Assembly: GCA_036172245.1 (NCBI GenBank)
Contig: JAYWIR010000053.1
Coordinates: 186,001-250,000, forward strand
From: Raillietiella orientalis
Lineage: Eukaryota
Direction of reading: 5' to 3'
Length of the DNA: 64,000 bases
The notes under the pieces were generated by a model, which did no database searches, was not told the origin of the DNA, and saw only the letters and a list, made by a program, of their open reading frames with translations. How positions within the stretch are numbered: position 1 is the stretch's first letter; each line of letters starts with the position of its first letter. Positions 1,416-55,711 of this stretch are shown here, in pieces. The position numbers were made by a program, and so were the translations under genes.

Positions 1416-1632
1416 TTCATCCGGATTTCTCCAAGTCGTTTATTAAAAAAATAAACGACGTAAACAAATTATTAATGGCTGTGGCAATGCTCCAGCCAGA
1501 AGCTAAGAACCACGGCGCCTGCCAATTCACCGGTTTCTAGACCGGTACCGTCCACCAAGGCAGCAGGGGAAAGGGGAAAAACAAAAAAAAACCAAAAAAA
1601 AAAAACAAAGGGTGGGAGGGAACGGGAAGGGT

Positions 1633-3761: not shown

Positions 3762-3860
3762 GTGCGGAAGTGTTTTTTCCGTGCTCCTCTGCGCCTGTTG
3801 TAAAGCATTCTTTTTCGGTAGTGTTTGTGCGTGGAGCATCTGCGGTGTCCAATGGCAGAA

Positions 3861-5921
3861 ATGCCTGAGGACACCGCGATGGAAGTCGGCGGGAGAGAGG
3901 ATTGCTCCTCAACCCAACCTATTGAGGTGAGGGCAACCGCCCCCACGAAGGAGAGAGCAACCGCTTTTTTGAAAAAGGGGGCAACCGCCTCTCCGGAAAC
4001 GAGGGCTACTGCCACCTTGAAAAAGGGAGCAACCGTCCTCGTGCAAAAGGCCGCAACCGCCCCCTTGAAAAAGGGGACAACCGCCGCCTTGGAAAAGGCC
4101 GCAACCTCCCCCTTGAAAAAGGGGACAACCGCCGCCTTGGAAAAGGGCGCAAACGCCTTCTTGAAAAAAAGGGCAACCGCGTCCTTGGATCCACCTGCTC
4201 CATGCACGAAGACCTAGAGCTCCGTGGCTGCAGCGCCATCTCCTGCTGCCTTAGCAGAACAACGGGCCTACATGGAACAAGGATACAAGCCGTCCTTGAT
4301 TTACAAGGTAGGAAACCTGTTTATAGGGAACACCGCTCGTAACTTTGAAAGGGAGTTACAGCGGTTGGGTGTTAAAGAGGAAGACCTGGAAGGTCTCTCC
4401 GTGATGAGTGGGGGCCAGCGTGTTTAGCTGACGTGCGAAAATGCAAGTCTGGCTCAACGCCTGCTGAACACTCCCATCACTCTGGAAGGCCGAAAGGTCT
4501 TCCCTGTAACGGAGGACCGCTCCATTGTTGCCCACCTTACGGGTGTAACTCTTCGCATGACCAAAGCTGGCGTGCAGGAAGAGTTACAAAAACATGGTAC
4601 GGTGCACGCGCTCTGGACCAAGCCCAACGTCTTCTAAACATACGGAAGACTGCTCAGTGGCATGGCTGCAGCGCGTGTGACGGTCCACGACAACAATGGG
4701 CTGTCCCACAAACTCGACGTCGGCAACGAGGTCGTCGACGTCTGGTACGTGGGCAAGCGCAAGTACTGTGGGCACTTTGATGCAACAGGGCACCTGAAAA
4801 AACGGTGCCCTCACATCCAGTGCTTCCACTGCGGCGAAAAGGGCCACCTGCGGAAGGTGTGTTCTAAACGCGAAACCCCGGGTACCCTGCTTTGAAAAAA
4901 GAAAAAGGGAAACGCGCGGGGCGATCGGACAAGCCTTAGGAGGCACCCGAGAGGCGGAACCCACAGCCAGAGCCCGAACCCGTGCAGCAAGCGCCGGTCG
5001 AGGGTACTCCCGACGACGCTGGAGAGAGCGAGGGCTGGCATAAGGCGAAGCCTAAAAGAAAAGAAATTAAAGAAAACCGAAGAACCGACAGCGGAACCCG
5101 CGACATCTTCTTTAAATAGGAGACAACGCCGCGCGTTGCTCCGCGAATGTTCGGTCGCTTTGGAGCGAGTGGAGATCCCCGAGACCTCCACCGGGGGAGA
5201 TATCTCCCGCCTCGTTGACGCCGAAGCCGCGATCGAAAAAGGCGAACCCTCTGTGCAAACAGAGGGGGAGCCGAGCGACGCGCTCGCCGCAATCGAGGAC
5301 ACCGCCTTCCAGCAGGCGGCGGAAGAGCTCGCGGCCGAACTCGCGGAGCGTGAGAACGGCGCACGAAAGGCCTTGCGAAGGCCGGCCACGAGCAAGGCAC
5401 CTCGGACAGGTGACCACGAACCGGATGCCGGAAGTGCGTCCTCCTCCGCGGAGGCGCCTCCGAAGAAGACTGGACGGAAGTCCAAGACTCCCAAGAGGCG
5501 CATCCCGACAAAGAAAGAGGGGGACGCACCGGCATCCGGGGGGGAAGCCGGCAGCGTGGGAACGGAGGGAGGGATTTTCCCACCCCCCGTTACCGAGCAA
5601 CTGGAGACCCCCATGGAGGAGGGGGATAAGGTGAGTGATTGCCGCCCTCTCCCATCGGTGGAACCTGTCCAGGAGATAGCCATGGAGGAGGGGGAGCAGA
5701 CAGCTGACAACCGCTCCCCCCTGCCGTTTAACGCAGCCGACGAATCGACCCCCATGGAAGAGGGGGAGCAGGTGCGTGAAACCCGCCCCATTCAACCGTT
5801 GCGGTCCGCCGAGGAATCGGCCCCCATGGAGGAGGGAGAACCGGTGCGCGGTGATCCTGTTCCTCCATCCGTCCCGCCCGACCAGGTGGCGGGAGCCCCA
5901 TTGCCACTTTCCCAGGAGTAA
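3861..5921 (+). pseudogene. C1 ORF1 (gag-like, zinc knuckles), with several premature stops and frameshifts
   Basis: MPEDT start, YKVG and WYVGK blocks, CFHCGEKGHLRKVC knuckle, low-complexity tail with AAEELAA; colinear with intact ORF1 at 15202-16872. Confidence 0.88.
3933..4184 (+). repeat. Degenerate 24-bp coding tandem repeat (about 10.5 units of ATAPLKKG-like octapeptide) in the C1 ORF1 N-terminus
   Basis: GCAACCGCCCCCTTGAAAAAGGGG-like units every 24 nt. Confidence 0.9.
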
Positions 5922-8900
5922 CACCTGGGCTCGCCTGTCGCCGTCGATTACCCGTGGCCTGCTGGAACGTTAACGGGCTGCGCGACGACGGCAACAGACG
6001 GGACACGGCCGCCACCCTGCGTGACTTCGACCTGGTACTTCTGCAGGAGATCCACGTGATCACCGCGGAGAACGCCCAGGAGATCGAAAGGATCGCAGGA
6101 AGACGGTTGATGTGGCAATGCGGCACCCGATACACCAGCGGCGTCGCGTTTTTTATGAAGCCGGCAGTCGACGCAGCCGTGAAGGGCGTGCGCTTCGACG
6201 AAGCCGGTCGTGCCGGCCAGCTGATTCTCAGGTGGTCCGACACGATCGACCTCGTCGTAACAAATGTGTACGCTCCGAGCGGTCCTACCAGGTACCAGGA
6301 ACGTAAGGCGTTCCTGGAAACCCTGAAGCGCGACTGGCTGGCGGAAGCGAACGTGCGCGTGGCTCACCTGATAGCGGGAGACTTTAATCTCCGCCTGCTA
6401 TCAGGTGAGCCACACGCACAGGAACGGACGGCTAACGAGTTGTGCGCCACCATGCGCACGCGCAACTTGTTAGGGGATCTTTCGGAAATGGTCAGCAGCA
6501 TCGACCACGTCTTCCTGGATGTAGACCTGTATTCACGGGTCGGCAAACGGGGGAAAGTTGCGTCGGAGCTGTCTGACCATTTCCGGTTGATATTCGAGGT
6601 GTGCCCGCGCGACAAGGGCCCCCCATCGAGGGCATGGCGTCTGCCTGGGGACTGGACGCGACTCTCAGGTGCGAGGGAACACCTTCGCGAATTCCTGAGA
6701 GGCGTCACCCTCCGCAATCTCAATGATTGGGACCTTTTTAAGGCCTCGGTCCGCGAGTTTTGCGAGGAGTTCCCCTTGCACCTCCTGCCCCGGGGATTTG
6801 GGGAGGGCATCCGTAACGAACGAGCGTACTTGTATGCCCGTCGTTACAAGAGGACCCCCAATGCCCGTCACCTGGCAGAGTACCGAGCCGGGGCCGAACG
6901 TCGAGTCTGGCAATCCGGAACGGCCAGCTTGCTGGACGACCAGGGCCGGGAGCACTCGGCTCCGGCTAGAATACGGCACCTCGTGCGGCGTTTTTATTCC
7001 TCCCTTTACGCCAGGGCGCCCCCGGACCAAGATGCCTCTCGGCGCTTGCTTCCGAACGGTGCCCCGGCAATAGGGGAGGAGGAGAAGGAAAGCATCGACG
7101 AGCCTTTTACCACCGGCGTAATTCTCGCCGGTATCAAAAGGCTCAAGAGGAGGAAAGCACCAGGGGAGGACGGCCTGCCTGCGGAGTTTTTTCAATGCTT
7201 CGCGGAAGAGTTGGCACCCCTGGTGCTTAAGTTGACAAGGCTGAGCCGAGATGAAGGCGATGTACCCGCCTCGTTTCGATCAGCCAGAGTGAGGCTCCTT
7301 CCGAAAGGAGGAGACCTCAGGAAACTCAGCAACTGGCGTCCGATCACAATTGTGAACACGGACGCCAAGTTGATTGCCGGACTGTGGGCTTCGCGTCTGG
7401 GGCAGGTGGCCAATTCCAAAATTAGCCCGGAGCAGACTTACGCTGTTCCCGGGCGAAGTATGGAGGCCAACCTCTTCTTCGCGAGCACATGGTTTCATGT
7501 GCAGAGTAGTGAAGAAAAGGAAGCGGGAAGGATTGGTAGCCCCGCTTTGGGGGCGTCAGCCGGGCAGGGACAGGACTCCCAGGTGGGAAAGGGAGCCTTA
7601 GCTATCGCAGTCGATCTGCATAAAGAGTTTGACTGCGTGGACCAGGATCTCCTGCTGGAGCTCCTGGGACGCATGGGCTTTCCTCCCTCCCTACTGACCT
7701 ACCCGCGCTCTTGCTGGCGCAGCGCGCTGATCAATATCTCTTTCAGAGGTCAAATGGCGTACGGCGTGCCGGTACGGCGGGGCATACGGGAGGGCGACAG
7801 TCTCAGTCCCCTGCTCTTTAGCACCTACTTTGAGGTGGTGCTGAGAGCGTACAGGGTGAATTTGGCTCCCTTGCCGAGGTCGTGCACCGGCACGCCCGCC
7901 GTAGCAGCGTACGCCGACGATCTTTTGCCTCTGTTGCCGATGTCCACCCCGGCGAAGGCGGTCGGGGATTTCTTCGCTGTGCTTAGCCGCGGGACCGGAC
8001 TTACAGTGAACAAGGCGAAGTCGTCGGTCGTACCGGTAGGTGCGGCGTGGGCTGGGCAGCAGAACTGGGTCCGCTTGAGGATCCCCACGGCGAGGTGCTT
8101 GAAGTACCTTGATGTGCCGTTGGGGGACTACTCCCCTGCGGAAGCGTAGTCCGGCTGCCTCCAAAAAGTGGAAACGGCGATCGGCCCGTTCCTGGAAGAC
8201 AAGTTTCTCCTTCCGGAACGGGCCGCGTTATGGAACGCGTTCGCGGCTCCTATCCTCCGCCCCTTGCTTTTTGTTTGCCCCGTCCCCAGAGAGTTGAAAA
8301 AACGGACGAAGGACCTCCTGAGAATTGCCCTTTAAGGAAGAGGGAGGCCCCGAGTCCCGTTGAAGGACTTGTGTGCTCCACGTCGGGATGGCGGTCTCGG
8401 CCTCTTGACGATGGAGCGAGTAGAGATTCAGCTGCGGTGGCGAACCCTCGCCATCGCAGCGAAGTTATGGAGCACTTCTTGGTGCGTTCCGGCCCGACTC
8501 CTTGCCAGCCGTGTATCCGGGACGGAGGGTCTCGCGTCCTATCTTTTTTGCCGTGGCAAGAAGATCAAGAGATGCGGACTTCTCCTGGGACGCATGGCAA
8601 CTCTGGCGAAGGAAAACGGCTGGATGGTATGCAGCCCCGCCAACTCCTGCGCATGGCTGGAGGAGAGAGCTGGCACGTGGGCGAAGATTAATGAAAAAAA
8701 TTAAGAAATATGGAACTGCCTGCGACGCGGCGCCTATTCCCGCTGCACTCTGCGGAAGATACTCCAGCGTCCCGCGAGAAGCACGTGGGCAGAGACAACC
8801 CCCCTAGCTACGGCGATGCCCTTATTGAGGAGGGCGCTCTCCATCAGCCGCAAGCCTAGGTGGCAAGTCTCCTGCCGCATCGCAGGTAAGGAGAAGTTGA

Positions 8901-9507
8901 TCAGCGGCTGGTCCACGGGTGAACTGACGGACGCCAGTACCCCTAGTGTCCAGCCGAGAGGACTGCAGAGATGGGGCGAGCTACTCGGCATCCAGCCGGA
9001 TGACCTGAAGTGGCCCCCGGTATGAATTGGATCTAGGATCCTCCCCCTGAAGTGGCAGGAGTCGGCGCTTCTGTTGTTGCATTAAGGTCTACCCTGCAGC
9101 GCACGACGCCACCACTGGACCAAAGGTCGAGTAGATCCTACTTGCATCAGGTGTGGGGAACGGGAAACTCTCCCCCACCTCCTTGTTGATTGTGCTGCCC
9201 TCCGACCCCTGTGGGAACGTCTCCGTGCCTCCCTACGGATCCAGGAGGGCAACCAGCCCAGAGACGTTTTTCGGCTTCTGTTCGTGCATGATGCCCTGCG
9301 TCCAGCCGCTGCCCTGGCTGCACTTTGCTGCGTACTCGGGATTGTGACGTACTGGAGCAACGTCGGAAGACCGAATCACGACAGGGATGCCGTCGTACTT
9401 GCAGTCCGCTACCTGCAGATTGTGACCAGATGACCCCACCTGGGGATTATACGGACGGACCTCGAGGGCATCTTGCGAAGGATGGACCCTCCTCCCAGTG
9501 GTCAGTG
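5918..9507 (+). pseudogene. C1 ORF2 (APE endonuclease-RT-CCHC); open for 731 codons, then multiple stops
   Basis: ORF 5954-8149 has WNVNG, LLQE, GDFN, SDH, WRPIT and YADD; stop at 8147 replaces a conserved Trp; downstream fragments include CIRCG..ETLPHLLVDC. Confidence 0.92.
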
Positions 9508-9714
9508 ATCCCTCCCCAACCCTCCCAAATCTTTTTGTTTTTATGTTTTATTTTTCTTTTTGTTTTTTCCCCCACCCCCTTCCGCTGCCGAGGAGAGTCG
9601 CGCAGGTCTGCGTACGGGCGACTTGGCAGGTCCAGTTGAGTTGGCCGTGGTGGGGCCTCGTACCACGAATTATATAGAATTTATAATAAACGCCTTGGCG
9701 TGACCGGGTGGCAA

Positions 9715-11180
9715 CTATCAACTTGGCATCAGCATTCGCTATTGTGATGGGACGCCAGTTCATGCTCCTCAGATCTCCTCCCTTAGGGAGAAGCCGCACC
9801 TTTGCCAAACGAAACGAGGCTGGAACGTCACCTGTCTCGAGTATCAGCAAGGTCAGTTGATGTACCAAGGGGGTTAGCTCAGCCGCGAAAGTTTGATAAA
9901 ACTACGTGGACAGGCCGTCCTCCTCTGGAGTTTTTCGCCTCTTGAGCTTTCCGATGGCCGAGATGATCTCGCCTATCGTGAAAGACTCGTCAAGGGACTT
10001 TTTCTCCTCTTCCCCGATCGCAGGAGCGCCTTCCGGAAGCAGGATTCGTGAGAAATCCCGCTCGGAAGGCGTTCGTGCGTACAGGGAGGAGTAAAAACGC
10101 CGCAGCAGACCGCGGATCTGAGCGGGTGCCGAATGCTCCTGGCCCTGATCGTCCAGCAAGCTGGCCGATCCTGACTGCCAGGCTTGCCTCTTGGCTCCCG
10201 CTTTGTATTCCGCCAGCCTGCGGATGTCGGGGGTCCTGGCGTAACGGCGAGCCCGCAGATAGGCTCGTTCGTTACGTACCCCGTCCCCAAATCCCGCAGG
10301 TAGGCGGTGCAGAGGGAACTCGTCGCCGAACTCCTGGACCGACCGTTTAAAGCGGTCTTAATCCTGGAGTGTCTGCATCCTAAAGCTCCGTATAATCATG
10401 CGGAGATGTTCCTTTGCGTCCGGGAGCTTCAGCCAGTCCCCTGGCAAACGCCAAGCTGAAAAGGGTGGGCCCATGTCGCGCGGATGGATTTCAATCAGGA
10501 TTGGTCGATGGTCGGAGAACTCGTACGGCATCTTGCAGCGCCTGCCCACACGAGTGCACAGGTGTTCATCAAGGAACACGTGATCGATGTTGTCCTCCAT
10601 CGCTGGTACACTGGCCAACAAATTACAAGTGTGCACCGCCGCGCACACCTCGTTGACCAGGTCACGCTCGTGATTCGGCCCATCCGGATTCAGACGAACG
10701 TTAAAATCGCCTGCAACCAGATGGGCATTCCGCACGCCTGCCTTGGTCAACCAGTCGCGATGGAGGGCTAGGAAAAATTCTTTCCTGCGGTGTGGCCCTC
10801 CTGTTCGTCAGGTCCGCTCCGCTCTGGGCGTAAACGTTGGTAACGATCAGGTCGATCATGTCGCACCAGCTAAGAGTCAGCTGGCCGACACGACCGTGAT
10901 CCTCGAACCGAACTACACGGGCGGCGGCCTCGATGGCGGGCCGAAGCAGGTAGGCGACACCACAACTTCTCGATGTTCCACACCGATACCACAGCCGCCC
11001 TCCGTAGATGCGTTCGATCTCGTGCGCTTGTTTTGCAGAGATCACATGGATCTCCTGCAGCAGCACAAGGTCGAACGATCCTAGAATGGCGGCCATGTCA
11101 CGTCTCCTGCCGGCGTCTGTCATTCCGTTCACGTTCCGAACCGCGATGCGCAGACGACGGCGGAAGAAGATTCCCTACAT
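9715..11180 (-). pseudogene. D1 ORF2, 5' half (endonuclease to RT motif 2)
   Basis: ORFs 10701-11132, 10358-10750 (HLVAGDFN, IDHVFL, SDH), 9902-10159 and 9548-9868 (WRPITIANADAKLI). Confidence 0.9.
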
Positions 11181-12895
11181 TACTGCCGGGAAGATGAAGG
11201 TGTGGGGAACCCGCCTCTTCCGAGGCGGGTGAAATGACCATTAGGGTTTCAGCCTCCTCAGGCACCTTGGGTACCTTTCCGGCTTCAACCCCCTCCATCT
11301 CCTCCGTGTCTGTGCGTGGTGGTCTCTCGGGTGACGATTCCCTGGATTCTCCCACGCTCATGGCACCCTCGCAGTCGGAAGTCATCTCCACGCCTTCGAC
11401 CTGGAGAGGGGCTTTCCGGGGTTTGCTGGACTTTTTTCCAGCCTTCCGGCGGGGTGCCGCGGAGATGGAAACTTGGTTTCCGGCCTGCGCTTCGGGGTCG
11501 GAAGTTACCGACTCCTCGGTGGTGGCCGGACAACTCACTGCCTTTTTGCAATCCTTGGAGCGGTCTGGCTGCAACGATGCAGCCAGCTCCTCCGCCGCAC
11601 GCTCGAAGGCGGCGTCATCGATCACGGTCTCGATGACGGACGCTTCAGCCGGTTCGCTCCCCACGCTGTTGACATTTTCAACAGTGGGTTGCTCGTCGGT
11701 GGCAGCGATTTCAACCTTGCGGCGTTCGGCGGGGACGCGTTCCACGACGACGTTGCATTCTTTTAAATTCTCGCTAACCTGCTGTTTTTTATTTTGGTAG
11801 GCGAGCTTTTTTTCGATTCGTCGTTCTTTCTTCGAATTTTTTTTCTTTTTCGCTGTGACTTCTTGCCATTCCAACACCTGACCGCTTTTGTCAATCTTTT
11901 CGGCATTCGTTGCCGGGTTGTCGGTTGAGGCCTGGACCACGGGAGTGGGTGGCACAGCTTGAGCGGCAGCCTTCACCGCCAGTTTTTTCTGAAGGAGCCG
12001 CGCGCGTTTTTTTAGGTTCCTCGCGGAAACCACGCGCACAGCGGATTGTGGACACACTTCCTTCGTGTGACCCATTGTCCCGCATACCAGGCACTATACG
12101 TTGGGGCACCTCCTTTTGAGGTGTCCCGACGTGTTGCAGAAGCCAAAGTATTTGGGCTTCCCCACGTACCAGAGGTCGACGCTTTCTCCGCCGACCACCA
12201 GATTGTGGAGAAGGGTAAAGCACTCCCGAACGGTTACACGGGCAGCCGTGAGGCCGCACTGAACTGTGGTATAGTCCTCGAAAGGACTAGGCTTGGTCCA
12301 TACTGAATGGACCGTGCCTTCTTTTCCAAACGCGGCACGTAACTGTTCTTTCCGCATCCGCGCGGTAACTCCTAAAAGGTGGACCACCATACTGTGGTCC
12401 GCCGTAACGGGAAGGAGTCTGCGTGTCCCCATTACCACGGGGGTTTTAAGCAGATGTTGGGTCAGATCTGCATGTTTGCAGATCACCTCTACGTACTGCC
12501 CCCCGCTACGAATGGTCATAGCGCAGAGCTCCTCTTCTTTAAAATCGAGAGCGCGCATATTCTTCGAAAAGGCGCGCGCACTCTCAACAGATTGCAGATT
12601 TCCTACCTTGTAGAATACTGATGAGTTATACCCCTCTTCCACATAGGCAGATAATTCCGCCGCGGCTGCAGGCGATGGCGCCGACACGACGGCGCTCCAC
12701 GCCCGCGCTGCAGCGGGGACCGGTTTTGTGGAGGCGGACTCCCCACGTCTTCGCCACTGAAGGCGACGTTGCCGCCGCCCCCTGGCACTCCACATTCTCT
12801 AGAGGCGACGTTGCCGCTGCCACCTGGCACTCCATTTCTTCAGGAGGCGACGTTGCCACCGCCCCCTGACACGTACTGGTGGTCGCGTCAGGCAT
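11180..12895 (-). pseudogene. D1 ORF1 (gag-like; N-terminal ~42-bp repeats; zinc knuckles)
   Basis: ORFs 12626-12919, 12094-12795 (WYVGKP..GHLKRRC) and 11098-12075 (GHTKEVC, AAEELAA). Confidence 0.88.
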
Positions 12896-12993
12896 TGCTG
12901 CCTGATCGACCACCACCACACACGAAGCCTACACCTAGGGACGGTTCCCGGCACGAGGAGCACCGAGAAAACACTTCCGCGATAGCCGACGTG

Positions 12994-15106
12994 AAGCTTT
13001 CGATTGCGTCGACCAGGAACTCCTTTTGGAGTTCCTGGAACGCATGGGTTTCCCGGCCGTGCTCCAGTCCTACCTGCGCTCCTGCTGGCGCAACGCGTCA
13101 ATTAATATTGGTTTCCGCGGCCGACACGTGTACGGCGTGCCAGTCCGCCGCGGTATCCGGTAGGGTGACAGCCTGAGACCCTTGCTCTTCAGCATCTACT
13201 TCGAGTTGGTGCTGAGGGCATACAGGGTAACTCTGGCAACCCTGCCGAGCTCGTGTGCCGGCACGCCTGCCGTGTTGGCCTATGCAGACGATCTTCTGCT
13301 GCTGCTTCCCAAGTCCACCCAGGCGAGTGCACTCGAGAACTTCTTCGAGTTGCTGCGCCGAGGGACGGGCCTGGAGGTGAACAGGGCGAAGTCGTCCATT
13401 GTCTTCGTCGGTTCGGCGTGGGCTGGACTGTCGTACTGGATCCGCTTGGGGATCCTAGGCGGGCAGGTGCCTCAAGTACCTCGGCGTACCGTTGGGGGAC
13501 TTCTGCGCAGCAGAAGCCCGGTCCGACCGTCTCCAAAAGGCAGCGTTGGCGATCGGTCCGTTTTAAGAAGGCAAGTTCTACTTGCAGGAACGGGCTGCGG
13601 TGTGGTCCGCGTTTGCGGCTCCGCTGCTTCGCTTCGTACTTTTTGTTTGCCCCGCCCCTTATTTTATTCGGAAACGAGCAGCGGGCCTCCTGAGGACAGT
13701 CCTTTGGGGCAAAGGGAGGTCCCGTGTGAGGCTCAAAGACTTGTGAGCTCCACGTAAGGACGGTGGACTTGGCGTACTTACGCTGGAGCGCATGAAACTG
13801 CAACGTAGATTCAGAAATCTCGCCCTCGCGGACGAATTGTGGGACGCGCCTTGGTGCGTTCCAGCACGCCTCCTGGCCCAACGAGCCTGCGGAATCGGCG
13901 GACTTTTGTCGTTTCTGTCTGCGCGCGTCTGCAGAAGAGCATACTGTGGCTCTATGCTGCGACGCATCTTCGTTGCGGTTCGGGAGAACGCCTTGATCTC
14001 CTGCCTCCCAGGGAACTACTCCGCCTGGTTGCACGAGTCAGTCTCCACCTGGGAAAAGATCCACGTTCCGGCGGGCACAAGGAACACTTGTATGAAAAGG
14101 CACGCCCGCTGGACGCTGCAGGAGATCGTGCAGTCCCACGACAAGCTTCTGTGGGCCTTGATAACCCCTCTCACCCCATTGCTGCTTTTCCTTGTGAATG
14201 CCAGGGACAGTAGCGATCAGGAAAATGGACCGTGTCCTGCACCATAGGCGGGAGGACACAATCGATAAAAGCGTGGACATCTCGGCAGCTAGCTGACGCT
14301 GCGACGCCGAGTGTCCTGCCCAACGGAATTCGACGCTGAGGCGAGCTACTCGGACTATCTCCGGAGGAGATGAATTGTCCCCCAGCGTCCTGAAACAGTG
14401 CATTTCTCCCCCTGAAATGGCAGGATGTGGCGTTGCTTGTGGTACTCTGGGGATTACCATTCAAAGCACGCCTGCACCACACCACCCGGGGGGCTGTGGA
14501 TCCTGATTGTGACCGGTGTGGGGCGAAAGAAACATTCCTCCACCTTCTCCTTGAATGCAGAGCCGTCCGCCCTTTGTGGGATCGTCTCGCGTCGATCCTG
14601 GACTTGAGCGGATGCGGACCAAAGGACGTTTTAAGGCTCCTCTTCTGTAGTGACGCCTTGGCCCCGCCCGCTAGTCTTGCAGTCCTTTGCTGCATCAGAG
14701 GAATAGTGGCGGCTTGGAACGCCAACAGAAGAAGGCGTCAGCCAACCGGCAACGCCTTACACTGAACTCTCCTTTTCGCGCGCAGTGTCTGCAAGTAGCG
14801 CCACTTAGGCGCAGAAAGGACTCAGCTTGTGCGGATCCGGAACAGGATCTAGAGGACCTGTCCACGCGCACCGTGATCCCTTCCCCGCCCTTCCACCCTT
14901 ACAACATTTGTTCCCCCCCCACATTTGAGCTTTTTTTTTATTTTTGTTTTTCCTTATTTCCCATCCCCGCGCATCGAAAGGACCTCTCCGGCATGGAGCC
15001 GGTAACCAGCAAGCTGTTTTAGAGTGGTGAACCTTTGAGTTCGCCACGCGGAATGTCATGTGTCTTATTTCAAAGAAATAAATGCCCCGGCACATCAGGG
15101 TGTGAA
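12994..15106 (+). mobile_element. Family A copy A0, right part (RT from KAFD to the 3' end), degenerate
   Basis: Resumes at AAGCTTTCGATTGCGTCGAC; YADD near 13281; CDRCG..HLLLEC; family-A 3'UTR; terminal AATAAATGCCCCGGCACATCAGGGTG at 15077-15102. Confidence 0.92.
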
Positions 15107-15116
15107 CCGCAGTGAC

Positions 15117-15130
15117 GGCAGACGTGTTTT
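15117..15130 (+). promoter_or_regulatory. Conserved 5'-terminal motif, putative internal promoter or initiator (representative copy)
   Basis: GC(G/A)GA(A/C)GTGTTTT-like motif at the 5' end of 7 elements from four families; function is inferred. Confidence 0.5.
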
Positions 15131-15201
15131 TTTTGCTGCTTCTGCGTTTTAGCGCGATTTTGTAGGTTGTGTGGTGTTTGGGCGGTGTTTTGAAGGCGGA
15201 A

Positions 15202-16872
15202 ATGCCTGAGGACACCGCCAGTGCGGAAGAGGGGGACGGGCGTGCCTCGTCCCCTCAGCCCATGGATGTGGGGGCCATCTCCACCACAGATTCGTCCCCC
15301 GCTCCGGCGAGGGATTGGAGTGCGGTGGTAGCGGCTCCCGCGCCGCCCCCCGCAGAGGAACAGCGGGCCTACATGGCCGACGGCTACAACCCGGCCCTAC
15401 TTTACAAGGTAGGTGGCCTGTACTCCCCCGCGGTGTTACGATCGTTCGCCGCGGAGTTTAAAAAGTTGAAAGTCCCGGAGGACGAAGTCCTCGGGCTTTC
15501 CGTGCGAAGTGGCGGGCAGCTGGTTGAGCTGAACTGCAAGTCTGCAGGGATGGCTCAGCAGCTGCTCCGCCTGCCGGTGACCGTGAACGGTCGAAGAATC
15601 TTCCCGTTCACGGCGGACAACTCCATGGTTGTCCACCTCACCGGTATTACGATGAGAATGGCCAAGACCGCCGTTCGGGAAAGTTTGGAGAAGTTCGGGA
15701 CGGTCCACGCGTTGTGGGCAAAACCCACTGTCCTGGGTTACACCAGGGCATTTAGTGGTTACGCCGCTGCGCGCGTGACGGTACGTGCCGAGGGTGGGCT
15801 ACCCCACAGACTGCAGGTCGGGGAGGAGGAGATCGACCTGTGGTATGTGGGGAAACCCGTATACTGCGGCTTTTGCCAGGTGTCGGGGCACCTGAAGAAG
15901 AGATGCCCAAACATCGTGTGCTTGGGCTGCGGCGCAAAGGGGCACATCAGGCGGATGTGCCCCAACAGAAAAAGGTCAGTTCCTACAGGCGCGAGGAAAG
16001 CAGACACGCCGAAGGAACAGGACCGGAGCCACGAAATGGCAGAAACCCACCCTGCCGACCAACCCGCTGCTCAGCCATCCACCAGCGAACAACCAGCTGG
16101 AGAAAGCGCCGAGAACGAGGAAGGTTGGCAGAAGGTGGAGAAGAGGAAAAAGGCCCCGAAGAAGGAGGTCAAACGAATCACCAAGGCGGCACCGCTGAAG
16201 AAGAAGCAGGTGATCCGCGCTTGTTCGGTAAAAATCGAACGCGTGTCGGTCATAAAAACCGCCGAAAAAATAGCGGTAAAACCGATCGATACCGTCGAAT
16301 CCGCGCCGATCGCGCCCGCAGTGACGTCACCATCAGCTGGCGACAATGCCGCTCCGGCATTGCCAGCGAAGGACGTCTGCGCGGCGATCGATGAAGCCGC
16401 TTCCATTGCGCCTGCGCCGTGTGTCGGTGCGGAAAGCGAGGAGGTGGCGCGAATCGAAGACGCGACCTTCGAGCAGGCCGCGGAAGAGCTGGCAGCCATG
16501 TTCAGGCGGCCTGCCAAGGTCGAAAAGAAGGCCTTGAGACGACCGGCGACGGCGAAGGGCCCGGAATCTTCCGGGTCCGACGCTGAAGCCGGTTGCTCTA
16601 CTTCCGCAGCCGTGCCGAAGAGGAAAGCTGGCAAGAAGGCCGGATGCCCGAGACGTGTCGCCTCCTCCCAAGTGGAGGAGCCCATGTCATCGGGCACGGA
16701 GGAGGAGGCAATGTGCGTCGCGTCACGCGAGCCTTCTCCGATCCGTGTCTCGGAAGCCAGCGCAATGGAAGTCGCTGCTGACGACGTGCTCCCGGGTGAG
16801 CAGCCGACCGTCGTCACGGCCGCCAACGAGCCGCCTCCCGAAAGGGAGGAGGCCGCCTCCACCCCACCATAA
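15202..16872 (+). CDS. LINE ORF1p, 556 aa, gag-like nucleic-acid-binding protein
   Basis: Uninterrupted ORF from the MPEDT ATG; CGFCQVSGHLKKRC and CLGCGAKGHIRRMC knuckles; upstream alpha/beta block resembling an RRM (inferred); disordered C-terminal half. Confidence 0.92.
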   Translation: MPEDTASAEEGDGRASSPQPMDVGAISTTDSSPAPARDWSAVVAAPAPPPAEEQRAYMADGYNPALLYKVGGLYSPAVLRSFAAEFKKLKVPEDEVLGLSVRSGGQLVELNCKSAGMAQQLLRLPVTVNGRRIFPFTADNSMVVHLTGITMRMAKTAVRESLEKFGTVHALWAKPTVLGYTRAFSGYAAARVTVRAEGGLPHRLQVGEEEIDLWYVGKPVYCGFCQVSGHLKKRCPNIVCLGCGAKGHIRRMCPNRKRSVPTGARKADTPKEQDRSHEMAETHPADQPAAQPSTSEQPAGESAENEEGWQKVEKRKKAPKKEVKRITKAAPLKKKQVIRACSVKIERVSVIKTAEKIAVKPIDTVESAPIAPAVTSPSAGDNAAPALPAKDVCAAIDEAASIAPAPCVGAESEEVARIEDATFEQAAEELAAMFRRPAKVEKKALRRPATAKGPESSGSDAEAGCSTSAAVPKRKAGKKAGCPRRVASSQVEEPMSSGTEEEAMCVASREPSPIRVSEASAMEVAADDVLPGEQPTVVTAANEPPPEREEAASTPP

Positions 16873-16880
16873 ATACACCA

Positions 16881-19800
16881 ATGCGTGGGCTCGCCTCCTG
16901 CCGCCGCTTGCGCATCACCTGTTGGAATGTCAACGGGTTGCGCGACGACGGAAAGAGGCGAGATGTAGCCGCCATACTGCGAGACTTCGACCTGGTGCTC
17001 CTGCAAGAGACGCACGTTCTCCGACCGGGAGATGTCCAGGAAATCGAAAGAATCGCGGGAGGGCGGCTACTGTGGAGGAACGGAACGGACAACTCCTGCG
17101 GAGTGGCCTTTCTGCTAAAGCCAACCGTCGACAACTCACTGCGCAGTGCACGGTTCGACGGGGATGGTCGAGTTGGGCAGCTTGTGTTCAAGTGGTCCGA
17201 CTCGATCGTCCTCGTAGTCACGAACCTGTACGCTCCGGTGAGCAGCCACAGGGCCGAGGAACGCACTGCGTTCTTCGAAACCTTGCGGCGAGACTGGTTG
17301 GCCGAAGCAGGCGTGCGAAGGGCGCACCTCATTGCGGGCGATTTCAATCTCCGCCTGCTGGCAGGTGCGCCCAGCGGACGAGCACAGCTGGTCAACGAGT
17401 TGTGCGCAGCCATGCATGCGCGCAACGTGTTGGCCGGCGATGCCGGGAGAGATCGGAACATCGACCACATGTTCCTCGACAACCACCTGTGCACGCGGGT
17501 GGGAACTCGAGGAACGCTCCCGGCAGAGCTGTCCGACCATCCACGGCTCGTGCTCGAGTTACATCCTCGCAATAAGGGCCCTCCCCTGAAAACATGGCGC
17601 CTGCCAGGGGATTGGTTGCGCCTCGCAGGAGCGGCGGAACATCTACGCTGTTTCCTGCGAGGATTCCAGCTTCACACGCTTGCGGACTGGGACGAAATGA
17701 AGTGCTCAGTCCGTGAGTTTTGCGACCAGTTTCCCCTGGAACGTCTTCCGCCGGGCTTCGGTGAGGGTGTCCGGAACGAGCGGGCGTACCTACAGGCGCG
17801 CCGGTATTCCCGGCGTCCCGACGTCCGTCGCCTGGCTGAATTCAAGGCTGAGGCGGAGAGGCAGGCCTGGCAGTCAGGCTCGGCCTGCCTGCTGGATCAT
17901 CAGGGCCAAGAACGCTCCAGCCCAGCCCAGGTAAGCCGCATCGTGCGGGAGTTTTATTCCTCCTTGTACGCGCCACTGACACCTGAGCGCCATTTCGCGC
18001 AGCGCCTGCTGCCGGATGGCGCTCCCGCGCTCAAGGAGGAGGACCGTTCCAGATTGGCGGAACCGTTCACGATGGCGGAGATCATCTCCGCCATCAACAG
18101 GCTAGAGAGAAGGAAGGCACCAGGGGAGGACGGCCTGCCCGCGGAGTTTTACCATCGCTTCGCGCCAGAGCTGGCCCCCTGGTGCTCAGGTTAAGTGCGC
18201 TGATCCGCGAACACGGCGAAGTTCCCGCCTCGTTCCGGTCAGCTAAAGTACGTCTCCTGCCGAAGTCAGGAGACTTACGCAACATTGGCAACTGGCGTCC
18301 CATCACAGTAGTGAATGCGGACGCAAAGTTGTATGCCAAGTTGTGGGCTGAGCGTTTGGGGCGGGTGGCCGCTTCCGTGGTGAGTCCCGAGCAGACCTAT
18401 GCTGTTCCCGGACGAACCATGGAGGCCAACCTGCTCCTCGCCAGCTCATGGTGGCAGTTGCGACAACGCGTTGCACAGGACGGTCAAGGGAGCCTCGCGC
18501 CCCCTCTGACCAAGAAGATCGGGCAGAGGGTGGGATGGACTCGGCGGGAGCCTTTGCCGTCGCGGTCGATTTGCACAAAGCATTCGACTGCGTCGACCAG
18601 GATCTCCTTCTGGAGCTCCTGGAACGCATGGGTTTCCCGGCCGTGCTCCAGTCCTACCTGCGCTCTTGCTGGCGCAACGCGTCTATGAATATTTGTTTCA
18701 GCGGCCGGCACGTGTACGGCGTGCCAGTGCGCCGCGGCATGCGGCAGGGTGACAGCCTGAGCCCCTTGCTCTTCAGCATCTACTTTGAGTTGGTGCTTAG
18801 GGCATACAGGGTAACTCTGGCAGCCCTGCCGAGCTCGTGTGCCGGCACGCCTGCCGTGTCGGCCCATGCAGACGATCTTCTGCTGCTGCTTCCCGGGTCC
18901 ACTCCGGCGAGTGCGCTCGAGGATTTCTTCGAGTTGCTGCGCCGCGGGACGGGCCTGGAGGTGAACAGGGCGAAGTCGTCCATGGTCTTCGTCGGTTCGG
19001 CGTGGGCTGGACGGTCGGATTGTATCCGCTTGGGGATCCCCACGGACAGGTGCTTCAAGTACCTAGGCGTTCCGATGGGGGAATTCTGCGCAGCAGAAGC
19101 CTGGTCCGACCGTCTCCAAAAGGCAGCGTTGGCGACCGGTCCGTTCCAAGAAAGCAAGCTTTACTTGCAGGAACGGGCCGCGGTGTGGACCGCGTTTGCG
19201 GCCCCCCTTCTTCGCCCCCTACTTTTTGTGTGCCCCGCCCCTTACTTCATCCGTAAACGAGCAGCGGGCCTCCTGAGGACAGTCCTTTGGGGCAAAGGGA
19301 GGTCCCGTGTGAGGCTCAAAGACTTGTGCGCTCCACGTAAGGACGGAGGACTTGGCGTTCTTACGCTGGAGCGCATTGAACTACAACTCCGGTTCAGGAC
19401 TCTCGCCCTTGCGGCGGAATTGTGGGACACGCCTTGGTGCGTTCCAGCACGCCTCCTGGCCCAACGAGCCTGCGGATTCGACGGACTTTTGTCGTTTCTG
19501 CTTGCACGCGACCGCAGAGAAGCACACGGCTGCTTAATCCTGCGTCGCATGGAAGTTGCGGTACGGGAGAACGCCTGGATCTCCTGCCGCCCAGGGAACT
19601 ACTCTGCATGGCTGCACGAGTCGGTGTCCACCTGGGTAAAGATCCACGTTTCGGCGGGCACAAGAAACACTTGCCTGCAAGGGCACGCCCGCTGGAAACT
19701 GCAGGAGATCGTGCAGTCCCACGAAAAGCGCATGTGGGCTTTGATTACCCCCCTTGCCCCAGTGCTGCCCTTCCTCATCGACGCCAGGGACAGTAGGGAG

Positions 19801-20436
19801 CTTGGGAAATGGAACGTGTCCTGCACTATTGGAGGCAGGACACAAACGATTATGGCGTGGACATCTCGGCAGCTAGCGGACGCTTCGACACCGAGAGTCC
19901 CGCCTAACGGAATTCGACGCTGGGGCGAGCTACTCGGACTATCTCCGGAGGAGATGAAGTGGCCCCCGGCGTCCTGGAACAGTGGATCCCTCCCCCTGAA
20001 ATGGCAGGATGTGGCGTTGCTTGTGGTCCTCTGGGGACTTCCATTCAAAGCACGCCTTCATCACCCAACCCGGGGGGCTGTGGATCCTTATTGTGACCGG
20101 TGCGGGGAAAAAGAGACCTTCCCCCACCTTCTCATCGAGTGCAGTGCCATCCGCCCTTTATGGGATCGCCTTACGGCGATCCTGGACTTGCGCGGATGCG
20201 GCCCTAAGGACGTTTTTAGGCTCCTCTTCCGTAGTGACGCCTTGTCCCCCTCCTCTTCTGTAGCAGTCCTCTGCTGCATTCGAGGGATCGTGGCGGCTTG
20301 GAACGCCACCAGAAGAAGACGTCAGCCAACTGGCAACGCCTTACGGTTCACCCGCCTATTCGTCCGAGACGTCTGCAAGTGGCGCCACTTGGGCGCAGAG
20401 AGGACTCAGCTTGTACGGATCCTAAATAGGATCTAG
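16881..20436 (+). CDS. LINE ORF2p (APE endonuclease, reverse transcriptase, CCHC zinc motif); 1185 aa if two homopolymer frameshifts near 18175 and 18500 are corrected
   Basis: ORFs 16881-18194, 18182-18688 and 18448-20436 join into WNVNG/QETH/GDFN/IDH/SDH, KAPGEDG, WRPIT, QTYAVPGR, DLHKAFD, RQGDSLSP, HADD, KYLG, GGLG and CDRCG-X6-H-X4-C. Confidence 0.88.
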
Positions 20437-20660
20437 AGGACCTATCCGCCCGCACGGTGATCCCCTCCCTGCCCTCCCATTCCCGAAACATTTGCTCCCT
20501 CCCATACTTCAACTATTTGTTTGTTTTTTGTTTTGTTCTTTCCCAACCCCCGCGGATCGGATGGACCTCTACGGCATAGCGCCCGTAAATACCAAGCTGT
20601 TTTGTAGTGGTGGACCTTTGGGTTCACCACGCGACAATCCATTGTGATTTTATTCTTTTG

Positions 20661-20691
20661 AATAAATGCCCCGGCATATCCGGGTGAAAAA
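20661..20691 (+). terminator. Poly(A) signal plus terminal stem-loop and short A tail of A1 (representative of 11 similar ends)
   Basis: AATAAA-TGCCC-C-GG-CATAT-CC-GGGTG-AAAAA. Confidence 0.75.
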
Positions 20692-21821
20692 GCGGTTCCG
20701 GCTTCGTGCGGCGAAATCGCTACGGTCGCGATCGATAGCGCGGCACACGTTGCTGCGATCGACACTGTTGTTCCAGTCCAGTCCACTGGAAGCATTGTAG
20801 CGGCGTGCGAAAGCTTAGCCGCTGCGGTTCGGAACAATAGCGCGCCAGTTGCCGCAATCGAATCGCTTGTTACGTCACCCAAATCGCAACAGGCGGAGAA
20901 ATCCGTGATGACGTGGAACGCATCCCTGTTGCAAACTTCGCGCAAGCCGCGGAAGAGTTGGCTGCCTTCCTGAGGCAGCCCGTCAAGGCCGAGAAGAAGG
21001 CCGTTCGACGCCCGGCTACGGCAAAATACCCGGAAACCTCCGAGTCTGACGCCGAAAGCGCGAACTCGCCCTCCGTTCGCTTGCCGAAAAGAAAACATAA
21101 AAATGCAACAGGAGCACGTAGACGTGCTGTCGCCTCTCAGGAAGAGGTCGAAATGGCATCTGACAGCGAGGAAGAGTCCATGTGCGTTGCACAATGCGAA
21201 TCCGTGCCTGAGAGCATCCTTTACCAACTGTTAACAAAGTCCACGGCCGACGTTGTGAGCGATGCTCCTGAACACTCCAACGACATGGACCCGAACCACT
21301 CACCCGTCTTCTGAATAGGAGGCGGTTACTTCCACCCCACCATAACAACACCATTGCGTGTTCTCGCGTTTCCTCGCCGCTTGCAAATAACCTGTTGGAA
21401 CGTCAACGGTTTGAGCACCGACGGGAAGAGGCGAGACGTAGCCGCCATTCTGCGAGACTTCGACCTGACCCTACTGCAAGAGACCCACGTGCTCACAAAA
21501 GAAGCAGGCAAGGATTTCAAAAGAATCACAGGAGGGCGGCTAATGTGGAGGAACGGAACAGACTAATCCTCCGGAGTGGCCTTTCTGCTGGATCAGGCAG
21601 TCGAAAACTCTCTGCGTAGCGTTCGCTTCGACGGAGACGGTCGAGTTGGACAGCTTGTTCTCAAGTGGTCCGAATCGATCGCCCTCGTTGTGACGAACAT
21701 ATACGCGCCAGTGAGCAACCACGGGGCCGAGGAACGCACTACGTTTTTCGAATCCCTGCGGCGAGACTGGCTGGCTGAAGCAGGCGTACGGAGGGCGCAC
21801 CTCATTGCGGGAAATTTCAAT
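20692..21821 (+). mobile_element. Family A-like fragment A2: ORF1 3' end plus endonuclease up to G(D/N)FN
   Basis: ORF 20913-21314 (AAEELAA..KKAVRRP), 21354-21566 (ITCWNVNG, LLQETH) and 21576 onwards (HLIAGNFN). Confidence 0.88.
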
Positions 21822-22353
21822 CGAGTGCGGACATGTTTTTCTCCGCTCTCGTCTCCGGGCTTCCATCCGCTTCATCTTGGCGTCCTACATTTTGACGACG
21901 ATGTCGACCCAACCCGAAGCTACTGAAGTTGGAGAAACAGCATCCGGATCGGCAATCGCGGAACCGACGGCCGCCTCCACTTCGTCTTTCTCGCCAATGG
22001 AGAGGAGTTTTGCTGACGTTGCTGCCACAGCAGCCGTCAAAGATAAACCACTCGAGGAGTCGCAGTTGCGGGCATACGTAGCCCAAGGTTATAGACCTGC
22101 TCTCCGATATAAGGTGAGTGGTATTCTTTCTGCGCGCGACGGGAATTCGTTCAACGATGAACTGACCCGTGTTGGCGTGCGGGAGGAGGACCTTCTCGCC
22201 ATTATGCCCGTAAATAATATGAACTATTTCAAGGTGCGTTGCAAAGACGCTGCACTTGTGCAACGCTTGCTGCGCACCCCGTTGTCGATCCGTGGCCAGA
22301 AGGTTTTCCCGGCCGCCATGGGCGACTCATTTGTGGCGGAGATTTTTGACATC
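21822..22353 (+). mobile_element. Family F 5' end and ORF1 start (copy H1), inserted in sense at the GDFN motif of A2; 3' part deleted
   Basis: CGAGTGCGGACATGTTTTT 5' motif; ATG at 21901 (MSTQPEATE..LRYKVSG); near-identical to 38139-37610 on minus. Confidence 0.87.
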
Positions 22354-24413
22354 AGATTTTCCGACGTCAGACGTTCATTGAAGTTCGATAGCACTTGTCC
22401 TTACTGACCCGGAGGCGGATAAGATCCTTCACTGGCGCCGGGACGGCAAAAATAAAAGAAAACAAAAACAAAAAGAGAAAAACGTCTGGAGGGCAATGTT
22501 TCTGAGGTGGGGGAGGGAAGGAGGGGATCACGGTGCGCCGTGAGCAGGCCTTTGCATCCGGTTTCGGATGCGAACAAGTGCCGGCAAATGTTTTTGAAGT
22601 CGGCGCCAACGGCACGCTTTCTCAAAGGAGAACGCTGCCCAGTGGATGGCATTCCGGCTGGTCCTACCTCTCCTAGACGCCGTCCACTTCTCCAGGATAC
22701 CGCGTATGCAGCAGAGCACTGCTACGCTTCCGAAGGCTGGCAAGCCGTCTCGCGTCACGAGGCGTCTGAATAAGGTTTTCGGGTCACCCTCCGGAATGTT
22801 GAGGATCGTCCAGAGTCTGTCCCACATTCCGCGGAGGGCAACACACTCCAGAATCAAGTGAGAGAAGGTCTCCCTTTCCCCGCACTCTGCACAACTAGCA
22901 TCCACATTCTCCGTTGTCCAGCGAGACAGGCGTGCTCTGCTTAAAAGTCGCCACTGGAGGAGAAGCAACGCCGTCTCCTGCCACTGCAGGGGAAGGGTGC
23001 CGTTGTTCCATGAGGCTGGGGGCCACCTCACCTCCTCCGGAGGTATACCGAGCAGCGCGCTTCAGCGTAAAAGTCCGTTCCACGGGACAGTCGGGGTACT
23101 AGCGTCCGCTAGTTCCCTCGGCGTCCACGCCTTCAGCAAATTTTTCCTGCCTCCGTTGAGGCAGGACACTTCCCACGATGCCTGTTGGTGGCTTTTTTGA
23201 AGTTCCCTAAGGAAGGGCAGCACTAAGGCAAGGGGGGTGAAGGAAGCCCACAGAAGATTCCGTGGGTTGGAAACGATCAACAGGAGTGGCTGACCAGCGT
23301 GCCTCCCTCTGCGGAGGCAGGAGAAGTCCTCATCGCTGGTGTCATTGATCTTCGCCCATGCAGAAACGTACCCCTGAAGCCAAGTAGTGCAATCCGCTGG
23401 GATTCAGGAGATCCAAGGGTTGTGTCTCATCAGGGCAACCAAGTCCCGCAGCTGATGACCACAATGTTTCAGGCTGCGTTCGTTGGCTACCAAAATTGAA
23501 GTCAGTCCGAAGCAGCCGGTTGCCCTGTGAGCAAGGAGTCTTGCCGATGCATACCAGGGTGCTGTCCAAAAGTTTGCCACAAGAGCAAGTTTTCTGAATT
23601 GGTGCTGTCGCTCCATGCGCTCCAACGTCAGGAGACCAAGTCCAGCGTCCCTGCGTTTAGCGCACAAGTCTTTGAGCGGGACGCGGGGCCTCCAATTGCC
23701 CCAGAGGGCTTTTCGTATCAGGCTCCTAGTCCGTGTCCTAATTTGGTAAGGAGTAGCGCGCACAAAAAGTAGGGGGCGAAGGAGGGGGGCCGCGAAAGCG
23801 TTCCATACCGTGGCCCGTTCCTGCAAATGAAACTTGCCGTCCCGGAACGGGCCGATCGCCAGCTCCACCTTTTGTAGACGGTCGGACCAGGCTTCTGCAG
23901 AGCAGAAGTCCCCCAACGGAACGCCAAGGTACTTGATGTACCTGCCCGTGGGGATCCCCAAGCGGATCCAGTCCGACCGTCCGGCCCTCGTCGAGTCGGT
24001 GAAAAGCAACGACGATTTCGTCCTGTTTACCTGGAGGCCTGTTCCACGGTATAGCAACTCGAAGAAATCTTCGAGCGCCGATGCCTGGGTTGACCCGGGA
24101 TGCAGGAGCAGAAGATCGTCGGCATAGGTCGACACGGCAGGCGTGCCGGGACACGAGCTCGACAGGGTTGCCAAAGTCTCCCTGTATGCTCTTAGCACCA
24201 ACTCAAAGTAGATGCTGAAGAGCAGGGGGCTGAGGCTGTAACCCTGCCGGATGCCACGACGAACCGGCACGCCGAAGACGTTGCGGTCGCTGAAATTGAT
24301 ATTGATGAGCGCGAAGCGCCAGCAGGAGCGCAGGAAGGCCATTAAGACGGCCGGAAATCCCAAGCGTTCCAGGAGTTCCAGAAGGAGTTCCTCGTCGACG
24401 CAATCGAAAGCTT
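22354..24413 (-). mobile_element. Family E 3' half (E1): RT from KAFD to a truncated 3'UTR
   Basis: ORF 23404-24363 (RQGYSLSP, YADD, KYLG) and 22528-23031 (CAECG..HLILEC, ending RIRNRMQRPAHGAP). Confidence 0.9.
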
Positions 24414-45101: not shown

Positions 45102-45109
45102 TGAAGATC

Positions 45110-54359: not shown

Positions 54360-54389
54360 CATTCCTTTAATGCTTCGCCAAACCTATAT

Positions 54390-55710: not shown

Positions 55711-55711
55711 G

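Follow-up and report, generated by a model that had tools for sequence, protein, structure and literature searches.

Two copies of a LINE family at the same nucleotide of the reverse transcriptase KAFD motif in two host LINE lineages of Raillietiella orientalis suggest a sequence-specific target

In Raillietiella orientalis, two copies of one long interspersed nuclear element (LINE) family, here called D, begin within the same motif, K-A-F-D, of the reverse transcriptase (RT) encoded by two LINEs of different families. This raises the question of whether D recognizes the motif as its target or whether a single insertion has been copied. Both copies lie in a stretch of 64,000 nucleotides (assembly GCA_036172245.1, contig JAYWIR010000053.1, positions 186,001 to 250,000 of the forward strand), called the window below and used for all coordinates. 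At least 44 of its 64 kb consist of L1-like LINEs nested in one another, with a GC content of 54–62%. As the coordinate ruler for mapping these elements we used the uninterrupted A-family copy A2 (15103–20691, plus strand), whose empty KAFD site (18577–18597) served as the pre-insertion reference. Our best reading is that D is a sequence-specific LINE with an apurinic endonuclease (APE)-type endonuclease (EN), which is a kind of element already known, and that its novelty would lie in a target within the RT-motif coding DNA of other LINEs.

The first copy, D1, lies on the minus strand with its 5' end at 12993 and its 3' end at 1416, antisense to its host A1, the two halves of which are 11.6 kb apart. 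On the tblastn map the upstream half of A1 (1–1415, plus strand) encodes the EN and the RT up to KAFD and is 89.5% identical to A2 17177–18587; the downstream half (12994–15102, plus strand) runs from KAFD to the 3' end and is 86.3% identical to A2 18578–20686. At 12980–13013 the plus strand reads ...cgatagccgacgtg/aagctttcgattgcgtcgac, with the slash marking the boundary between the D1 5' end and the host, whilst the upstream half of A1 ends ...ggcAAAGCATTCGATT/ttcatccgg at 1403–1415. In the alignment A1 1–1413 extends to A2 18587 and A1 12994–15102 begins at A2 18578, so that 10 bp of A2 are represented in both halves of A1, confirming a target-site duplication. Its upstream copy is AAAGCATTCGATT (1403–1415) and its downstream copy is (G)AAGCTTTCGATT, the K-A-F-D codons of A1 (12993–13005, plus strand, D1 5' junction at 12993/12994). 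The duplication measures 11–13 bp, AAAGCATTCGA(TT), beginning at the Lys codon of KAFD. An earlier sequence-only reading of the window had proposed such a copy on the 3' side of D1, and it was found there. The A1 reading frame runs from 1415 on into 12994 as in A2, and an empty A site was represented by one contig of the public run X1, which joins 1336 to 12990.

The second copy, D2 (24415–26393, plus strand), comprises the 5' 1.98 kb of family D, with the 5' untranslated region (UTR), open reading frame 1 (ORF1) and the first EN motifs, and stops at ...LLQEIHVISAEQAQEI, where the 3' end of LINE I (26394–30379, minus strand) interrupts it. Its host, E1 (22357–24414, minus strand), runs from the Lys codon of KAFD towards a 3' end of which approximately 100 bp is lost, and RVT_1 was matched from residue 1 of the ORF at 23404–24417. 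The stretch 24394–24430 reads gtcgacgcaatcgaaagctt/tacgtcagctagagcgg, which is the reverse complement of the 20-mer at the D1 junction followed by the D 5' end as in D1. As at D1, the first base of D2 adjoins AAGCTTTCGATTGCGTCGAC of the minus-strand RT E1, and in both copies the 5' end meets the Lys codon of K-A-F-D with the element antisense to its host. This codon lies at 18577–79 in A2, 24414–12 in E1 and 12993–95 in A1 (there GAA). The base at 12993/24414 may be counted with D (5' YACGTC) or with the host, which defines each junction within 1 nt, alike in both copies; with that ambiguity, the junction positions given in the sequence-only reading were right. The catalytic Asp of this RT motif we take to be the D of VDL, four codons upstream of the K, and not the D of KAFD.

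If a single D insertion had been duplicated together with its host, D and flank should be equally alike. D1 and D2 are 91.5% identical over 1834 nt (82–97% in 100-column windows), whereas past the junction consecutive 100-column windows give 84, 74, 77, 85, 89 ...%, falling below 60% beyond about 800 bp. The hosts also end differently, both in their C-termini and 3' ends (A ends AATAAATGCCCCGGCATATCCGGGTG, E ends AATAAGAGCCCCGGGTTACCCGGGTG). In a seven-way alignment, A1–E1 identity by 100-bp bin was 84, 77, 89, 76, 79, 83, 65, 78 and 59%, then 51–68%, and it tracked A2–E1 identity in every bin (A1–E1/A2–E1 84/82, 77/80, 89/89, 76/79, 79/82, 83/83, 65/72, 78/78, 59/60), whereas A1 and A2 are 87–97% alike across those bins. 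On this comparison the A1 flank is ordinary A sequence, and the E1 flank ordinary non-A sequence, up to the junction. A maximum-likelihood tree of the 820 nt after KAFD joined A1 to A2 (100/100) and placed E1 outside, grouped with F; it also paired D1 with C and G with I. In the RT tree about 0.29 changes per site separate A1 from E1. The hosts differ little in the conserved RT bins and strongly at the C-terminus, which marks them as lineages that separated while functional, under protein selection, and not as decaying duplicates.

An ancestral D-plus-host block could nevertheless have been duplicated and one flank later swapped for that of an E-type LINE, through recombination or through gene conversion. 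BLAST does join D and flank in one inverted alignment of 3.5 kb (11017–14474 against 26393–22927, 83%), the window holds further inverted look-alike blocks, and the first 32 bp of the two flanks are 31/32 alike. However, A1–E1 identity equals A2–E1 identity from the first 100-bp bin, so the exchange would have to stop some 20–30 bp from the junction. Over 700 bp, 103 informative sites pair A1 with A2, 33 pair A2 with E and 19 pair A1 with E, and position 21 already unites A1 and A2. An exchange over 2 kb between sequences 55–80% identical is not expected, and an equally sharp switch was seen at an unrelated junction of another family, J (see below). A flank staying D-like past the junction, set beforehand as the sign of one insertion plus recombination, was not seen in the sliding windows, and we consider this account quite improbable.

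Alternatively, the 5' end of D RNA may include a short stretch taken from an earlier host, through an upstream transcription start or read-in, in which case the shared AAGCTTTCGATT.. would be part of D and not of its target. Three sites within the first 26 bp (positions 5, 11 and 26) do unite A1 with E against A2, and at position 5 both 5' flanks have T, reading AAGCTTTCG, where the A1 upstream duplication copy and A2 read AAGCATTCG. Position 5 is, however, a synonymous third position of an Ala codon, and its state and that of position 26 are also found at empty KAFD sites of other families, the T at position 5 at the empty site of LINE I. The T at position 11 is present in the A1 upstream duplication copy and therefore predates the D1 insertion. 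The empty site of a D-like copy, D3, differs from the A1 flank at only two of 32 positions (manual count). From position 21 the flank follows each host family, and the A1 frame continues from 1415 to 12994. A carried piece longer than about 12–20 nt is excluded, and a shorter one would still require the same target. We regard a carried piece as very improbable; the similarity of the first flank bases is, as far as these sites tell, motif conservation.

Because the region is rich in repeats and the two junctions share an identical 20-mer, repeats might have been collapsed or mis-joined there during assembly. Set against this, 8.5% of positions differ between the D copies and 16–50% between the flanks, as expected of two distinct loci, and D1 has a proper duplication; an assembly artefact is scarcely credible. 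The gap between D and host identity, the equality of A1–E1 with A2–E1 and the tree together leave duplication, a carried host fragment and recombination unsupported. From them we conclude that D1 and D2 most probably represent two independent insertions. The earlier claims that the D copies are more alike than their hosts (91.5% against 84% falling to about 50%), and that segmental duplication does not suffice, A1–E1 identity never exceeding the A2–E1 pattern of ordinary hosts, therefore held. With random integration into a host of about 5.6 kb in either orientation, we estimate that a second hit at the same nucleotide would occur about once in 11,000.

D1 has the marks of a LINE: a duplication of 11–13 bp, no terminal repeats and a 3' end of AATAAA..GGATG + AA(AA), which resembles the AATAAA..CCGGGTG and short A-rich tail of other families in the window. 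Its 5' part (9715–12993, minus strand) includes the 5' end YACGTC..GCGGAAGTGTTTT, ORF1 with one stop, the EN and the start of the RT, and its 3' part (1416–3761, minus strand) continues from the DAKLIAK motif of the RT to the 3' end AATAAACGACTTGGAGAAATCCGGATG + AA(AA). Pfam matched Exo_endo_phos at 10827–11174 (E 2.6e-06, 27.8 bits, cut-off 24.5), identifying an N-terminal apurinic-type endonuclease; the second EN half (10361–10786) scored 17.7 bits, below cut-off. RVT_1 was matched at 3072–3419 (E 3e-08, 34.1 bits), identifying a reverse transcriptase. The D1 EN shares 57–61% amino acid identity with the A2 EN, and its RT, which has seven stops (1710–3569), shares 46% with the A2 RT over 620 amino acids. 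LINEs of the window encode an ORF1 with a weak CCHC match, an APE-type EN (Exo_endo_phos), RVT_1 and a weak zf-RVT match, which in A2 is below cut-off. Their EN domains can be aligned throughout, and most of their differences fall in segments that follow GDFN or precede the SDH motif. We considered whether the D 3' end resembles the target, and attributed the likeness to the CCGG(G/A)TG end common to the families rather than to target homology.

In both copies of D, ORF1 opens with a 42-bp unit repeated 2.7 times in tandem (12761–12872 and 24535–24646), encoding repeated ..A-T-S-P.. units. The first 27 or so nt of D (12967–12993 against 24415–24441) have seven mismatches between D1 and D2 and are more diverged than the next 1.8 kb (about 92–97% alike); many of these differences fall at CpG sites.

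Nine KAFD sites were found in LINEs of the window, of which two are occupied, both with the 15-mer TTCGATTGCGTCGAC. Among the seven empty sites this 15-mer is present in one (D3); GAC stands in place of GAT in A2 and in D1 itself, and the sites of C, F, G and I depart from it further downstream. Sites with TTCGATTGCGTCGAC are thus occupied in two of three cases against none of six others, which is suggestive only.

A parallel case is provided by family J, which begins (GAGTGCGGAC..) at 21823 on the plus strand and at 38138 on the minus strand, both times directly after ..GG(A/G)A(A/T)TTTCAATC, encoding the G-(N/D)-F-N endonuclease motif, and in sense orientation. At the first locus (20692–22353, plus strand) host H1 extends up to G-N-F-N (21822) and is followed by J1; at the second (36243–40440, minus strand) host H2 (40440–38139) extends up to G-D-F-N and is followed by J2 (38138–36243), with the same junction nucleotide. 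The hosts are 60–70% alike up to the last window before the junction and J is 91–98% alike after it. In a third host, at 62672–62720 (plus strand), the 3' end of LINE G (..GACCGGGTG + AAAAA) is followed by D3, which starts at TTTCAACG (the FN of GDFN), 8–9 nt upstream of the J junction position. This offset is as expected if the G end were the other end of a duplication at J's site; the preserved parts of G and J have no detectable overlap.

D might still lack a sequence-specific endonuclease and simply prefer LINE nests, through chromatin or a centromere-like environment as proposed for Zepp, the coincidence at KAFD then being fortuitous or the product of a structural hot spot. LINE lies in LINE throughout the 64 kb, families seen once lie at various sites, sister families (D and C, G and I) differ in site, and clusters of Zepp and ZeppL are described as arising by insertion into existing copies (PMC8226300, PMC3446292). 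Regional preference does not, however, predict nucleotide precision, whereas D enters two host lineages at one nucleotide and in one orientation, its 5' end complete each time, and J behaves alike at another motif. We therefore find regional preference unlikely, if less so than the accounts above. The recurrence of D at one nucleotide and in one orientation in two host lineages, with the J parallel at GDFN, makes the site-specific reading the best supported: family D is probably a sequence-specific APE-type non-long-terminal-repeat retrotransposon, whose target would be the K-A-F-D-C-V-D-coding DNA (RT motif A) of other L1-like LINEs in the same genome.

Several observations weigh against this reading. 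The evidence for D comprises two junctions in one window; both of the two seen are at one target and in one orientation, in two host lineages, which is too few to call specificity strict. D2 is a 5' fragment whose 3' junction and duplication, together with the upstream half of E1, are absent from the window. D1 is decayed, with one stop in the N-terminal piece of the EN, two more in the EN, seven in the RT and C-terminus and one in ORF1. The near identity of the first 32 bp of the two flanks also counts here, although no motif is more conserved. The A-family copies differ in their 3' flanks (A1 runs head-to-tail into A2, and A2 into H1), so not every family here need be site-specific, and the placement of the sister families D/C and G/I at different sites means that single events could be non-specific.

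Nor did searches beyond the window add to the D junctions. Run X1 contained 16% of sampled window words, and 579 of its short contigs were placed on 1–15102, 364 of them less than 90% alike. No X1 row fell on 12993 or 1416 among the 6 of 387 loose ends and 15 of 25 joints listed, which is uninformative either way on more D junctions. A metagenome scan with a four-sequence alignment of the RT after KAFD yielded no additional copy of D; of 187 confirmed loci 80 were retained, all of them distant (22–41% identical) and with no nucleotide similarity to the window. A 19-mer from the D 5' UTR likewise gave no further D copy, with 40 matches in bacterial genomes, none of which had BLAST nucleotide similarity to the window and which were taken as chance, and none in viral contigs. 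A junction peptide (18 residues of antisense D followed by KAFD..) gave no candidate among proteins of 40–130 amino acids and two matches among longer ones, both uninterrupted RTs (P0001 and P0005). P0001 belongs to a further family, 53–77% identical to those of the window. A search for homologues of the A2 RT returned four matches, the best at 66%, from one metagenome contig; the best named relative of the A2 RT was a plant L1-like protein (28%), and the Protein Atlas gave generic EN-RT clusters only.

If D is site-specific, a simple route to the observed junctions can be proposed. The D endonuclease would nick the host sense strand after ..TTCGA(TT); with D antisense, the strand that primes cDNA synthesis would be this host sense strand, ending ..TTCGA(TT)-3'. 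The freed 3' OH (..ATT) could pair with the short A tail of D RNA, which ends ..CCGGAUGAA(AA) and would allow two to four A:T pairs, and so prime reverse transcription. The second strand would be cut 11–13 nt upstream, where the Lys codon begins, and joining of full-length cDNA at that nick would give the invariant 5' junction. The constrained coding motif of active LINEs would then offer a stable, multicopy and harmless landing site, in the role of ribosomal DNA (rDNA) for R1 and R2 and of Tx1D for Tx1L. On this model most D 3' ends, those of 5'-truncated copies among them, should border the reverse complement of AAAGCNTTCGA(TT), and do so in hosts of several lineages.

The sequence-only reading had also proposed that co-resident LINEs partition their targets. 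Of that reading, two independent insertions at one KAFD nucleotide stood, within the bounds of a single window, whilst partitioning itself draws on J twice, G once and single events elsewhere. LINE C (3762–9714, plus strand; EN and RVT_1 in 5855–8149) lies full-length and antisense within D1, flanked by a perfect 13-bp duplication, GCCAAGTTGATAG in the D1 sense, at 3749–3761 and 9715–9727, within D-A-K-L-I-A-K of RT motif 1. The other single events are I in D2 after LLQEIHVISAEQAQEI, E2 in J2 at about J position 1895, H2 in F near A2 coordinate 2643 and F in I2 near 2810–2830. It is possible, though we would not yet call it probable, that these L1-like families form a guild with endonucleases each tuned to a different ORF2 motif (D to K-A-F-D, J and G to G-D-F-N, C to D-A-K-L-I-A-K, I after L-Q-E-I-H), serving as landing pads for one another and disabling one another. 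Such a guild would be a hyperparasitic network with partitioned niches, and its targets could not mutate away, being held by selection on active hosts. Two candidates were set aside: a 3' junction of F in I2 at AVDL-KAFD, as the map places the junction near A2 coordinate 2810–2830, and E3 as a third test of an E target, which was uninformative since its identity to E2 is only 72% and its flank differs.

The nearest known system is Tx1L of Xenopus laevis, whose APE-type endonuclease is highly specific and which is reported to integrate at one sequence within another transposable element, Tx1D (PMC1950540). D resembles it as a LINE with an APE-type endonuclease that apparently uses one site inside another transposable element. 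Tx1L, of the Tx1 clade, has an ORF1 and an EN-RT ORF2. Unlike its site, which is non-coding and in a DNA transposon, the D target would be protein-coding DNA for the RT catalytic-motif region, in several LINE lineages, and hit antisense. R1 and R2 in 28S rDNA (R1Bm is such an inserter) and TRAS and SART in telomeric repeats use conserved multicopy safe sites, with precise junctions and fixed orientation (PMC1950540, PMC4640811). These targets are host RNA genes or telomeric repeats, unlike another retrotransposon's coding sequence, and R2 uses a restriction-like endonuclease whereas that of D is APE-type. LINEs are also known to target tRNA genes and spliced-leader genes. The sequence-specific targets named in these sources are rRNA, snRNA (small nuclear RNA), telomeric repeats, microsatellites and one DNA transposon (PMC4640811, PMC1950540). 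A LINE with a fixed target in the coding sequence of the catalytic-motif region of other LINEs was not found in the literature collection searched, to which this statement is confined.

As nested clusters of GC-rich L1-type LINEs, the elements of the window are like Zepp of Chlorella and Coccomyxa and ZeppL of Chlamydomonas (PMC8226300, PMC3446292); centromeric LINEs of green algae are further treated in PMC9940879 and PMC11005252. As described there, one Zepp or ZeppL family inserts into itself, giving tandem arrays of 5'-truncated 3' ends with poly(A). That description sets them apart from the window, with its many families, cross-family hits and nucleotide-precise coding-motif sites. A Zepp-type element would be self-targeting, mostly 5'-truncated and poly(A)-tailed, whereas here insertion is across families, D1, C and A2 are full-length, and tails are 2–5 nt. 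Homing endonuclease genes, inteins and group I and II introns, selfish elements lodged in essential genes at conserved motifs, have nucleases that recognize the DNA of conserved active-site motifs, which cannot drift. Their likeness to D is one of evolutionary logic alone; the enzymology is unrelated, with no target-primed reverse transcription of the LINE kind.

Should the pattern hold genome-wide, retrotransposons could use one another's constrained motifs as stable multicopy targets, and several families could share out such motifs. LINE nests, possibly centromere-like ones, could then arise as elements insert into one another with nucleotide precision, rather than through a preference for a region. 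The window families would also provide natural APE endonucleases that are 50–60% identical yet have different long recognition sites, a set useful for understanding, and perhaps re-targeting, LINE specificity.

The uninterrupted counterpart of the LINE C site lies in D3 (63676–63688), and LINE C carries 24/48-bp repeats (3931–4189) at the place matching the D ORF1 repeats. At 26394–26423 the 3' end of LINE I (AATAAACGCCCAGGCGTGACCGGGTG + AGAA) cuts D2 antisense, about 30 nt past the L-Q-E-I-H endonuclease motif. The remainder of D2 was not found in the window, which leaves the nest unclosed, and a rearrangement or deletion is likely near 30380–30400. A J 5' part beside an antisense E 3' part occurs twice (21823–22353 with 22357–24414, and 36243–38138 with 35051–36240), J being about 92% and E about 90% alike and the flanking hosts only 60–70%; the first copy lacks some 1.45 kb across the J/E junction. 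Either E may target a J-specific site, or a J copy carrying E may have been retrotransposed as a unit.

Full-length 5' ends of the window LINEs have a common start, GCGGA(C/A)GTGTTTTT. With up to three mismatches this pattern has 15 matches in the window against 7.7 expected, and seven of the 15, each with at most two mismatches, are at element starts. The 3' ends are likewise common, AATAAAYGCC..GGCGTGACCGGGTG followed by an A-rich tail of 2–5 nt. A far more distant LINE lineage is represented by K1 (32760–35060) and K2 (58445–55772), which share 22–39% amino acid identity with A2 and are 88% alike; they have their own 5' end (TTAATCAG..) and CDLN where the others have GDFN. K1 is cut at about 35060, the start of the 5'-truncated E2. 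An interruption of K2 at GDFN was considered and rejected, as its reading frame continues.

Rfam gave no match over the whole window, and Pfam gave none for ten ORFs of a low-GC stretch and three ORF1-like ORFs. That stretch (44500–55300, 43–50% GC), matched by neither Pfam nor Rfam, contains just decayed remnants of LINEs: EN at 45624–46531, E-like at 47667–48555, J-like at 48861–49401, and ORF1 and RT pieces at 53678–55713. The 3' end of A1 (..CAGGGTG) is joined directly to the 5' end of A2 in a head-to-tail tandem (15077–15130; 20661–20700), and the 7-mer GAACCGC after the A1 end is the reverse complement of the GCGGTTC that follows the A5 tail of A2.

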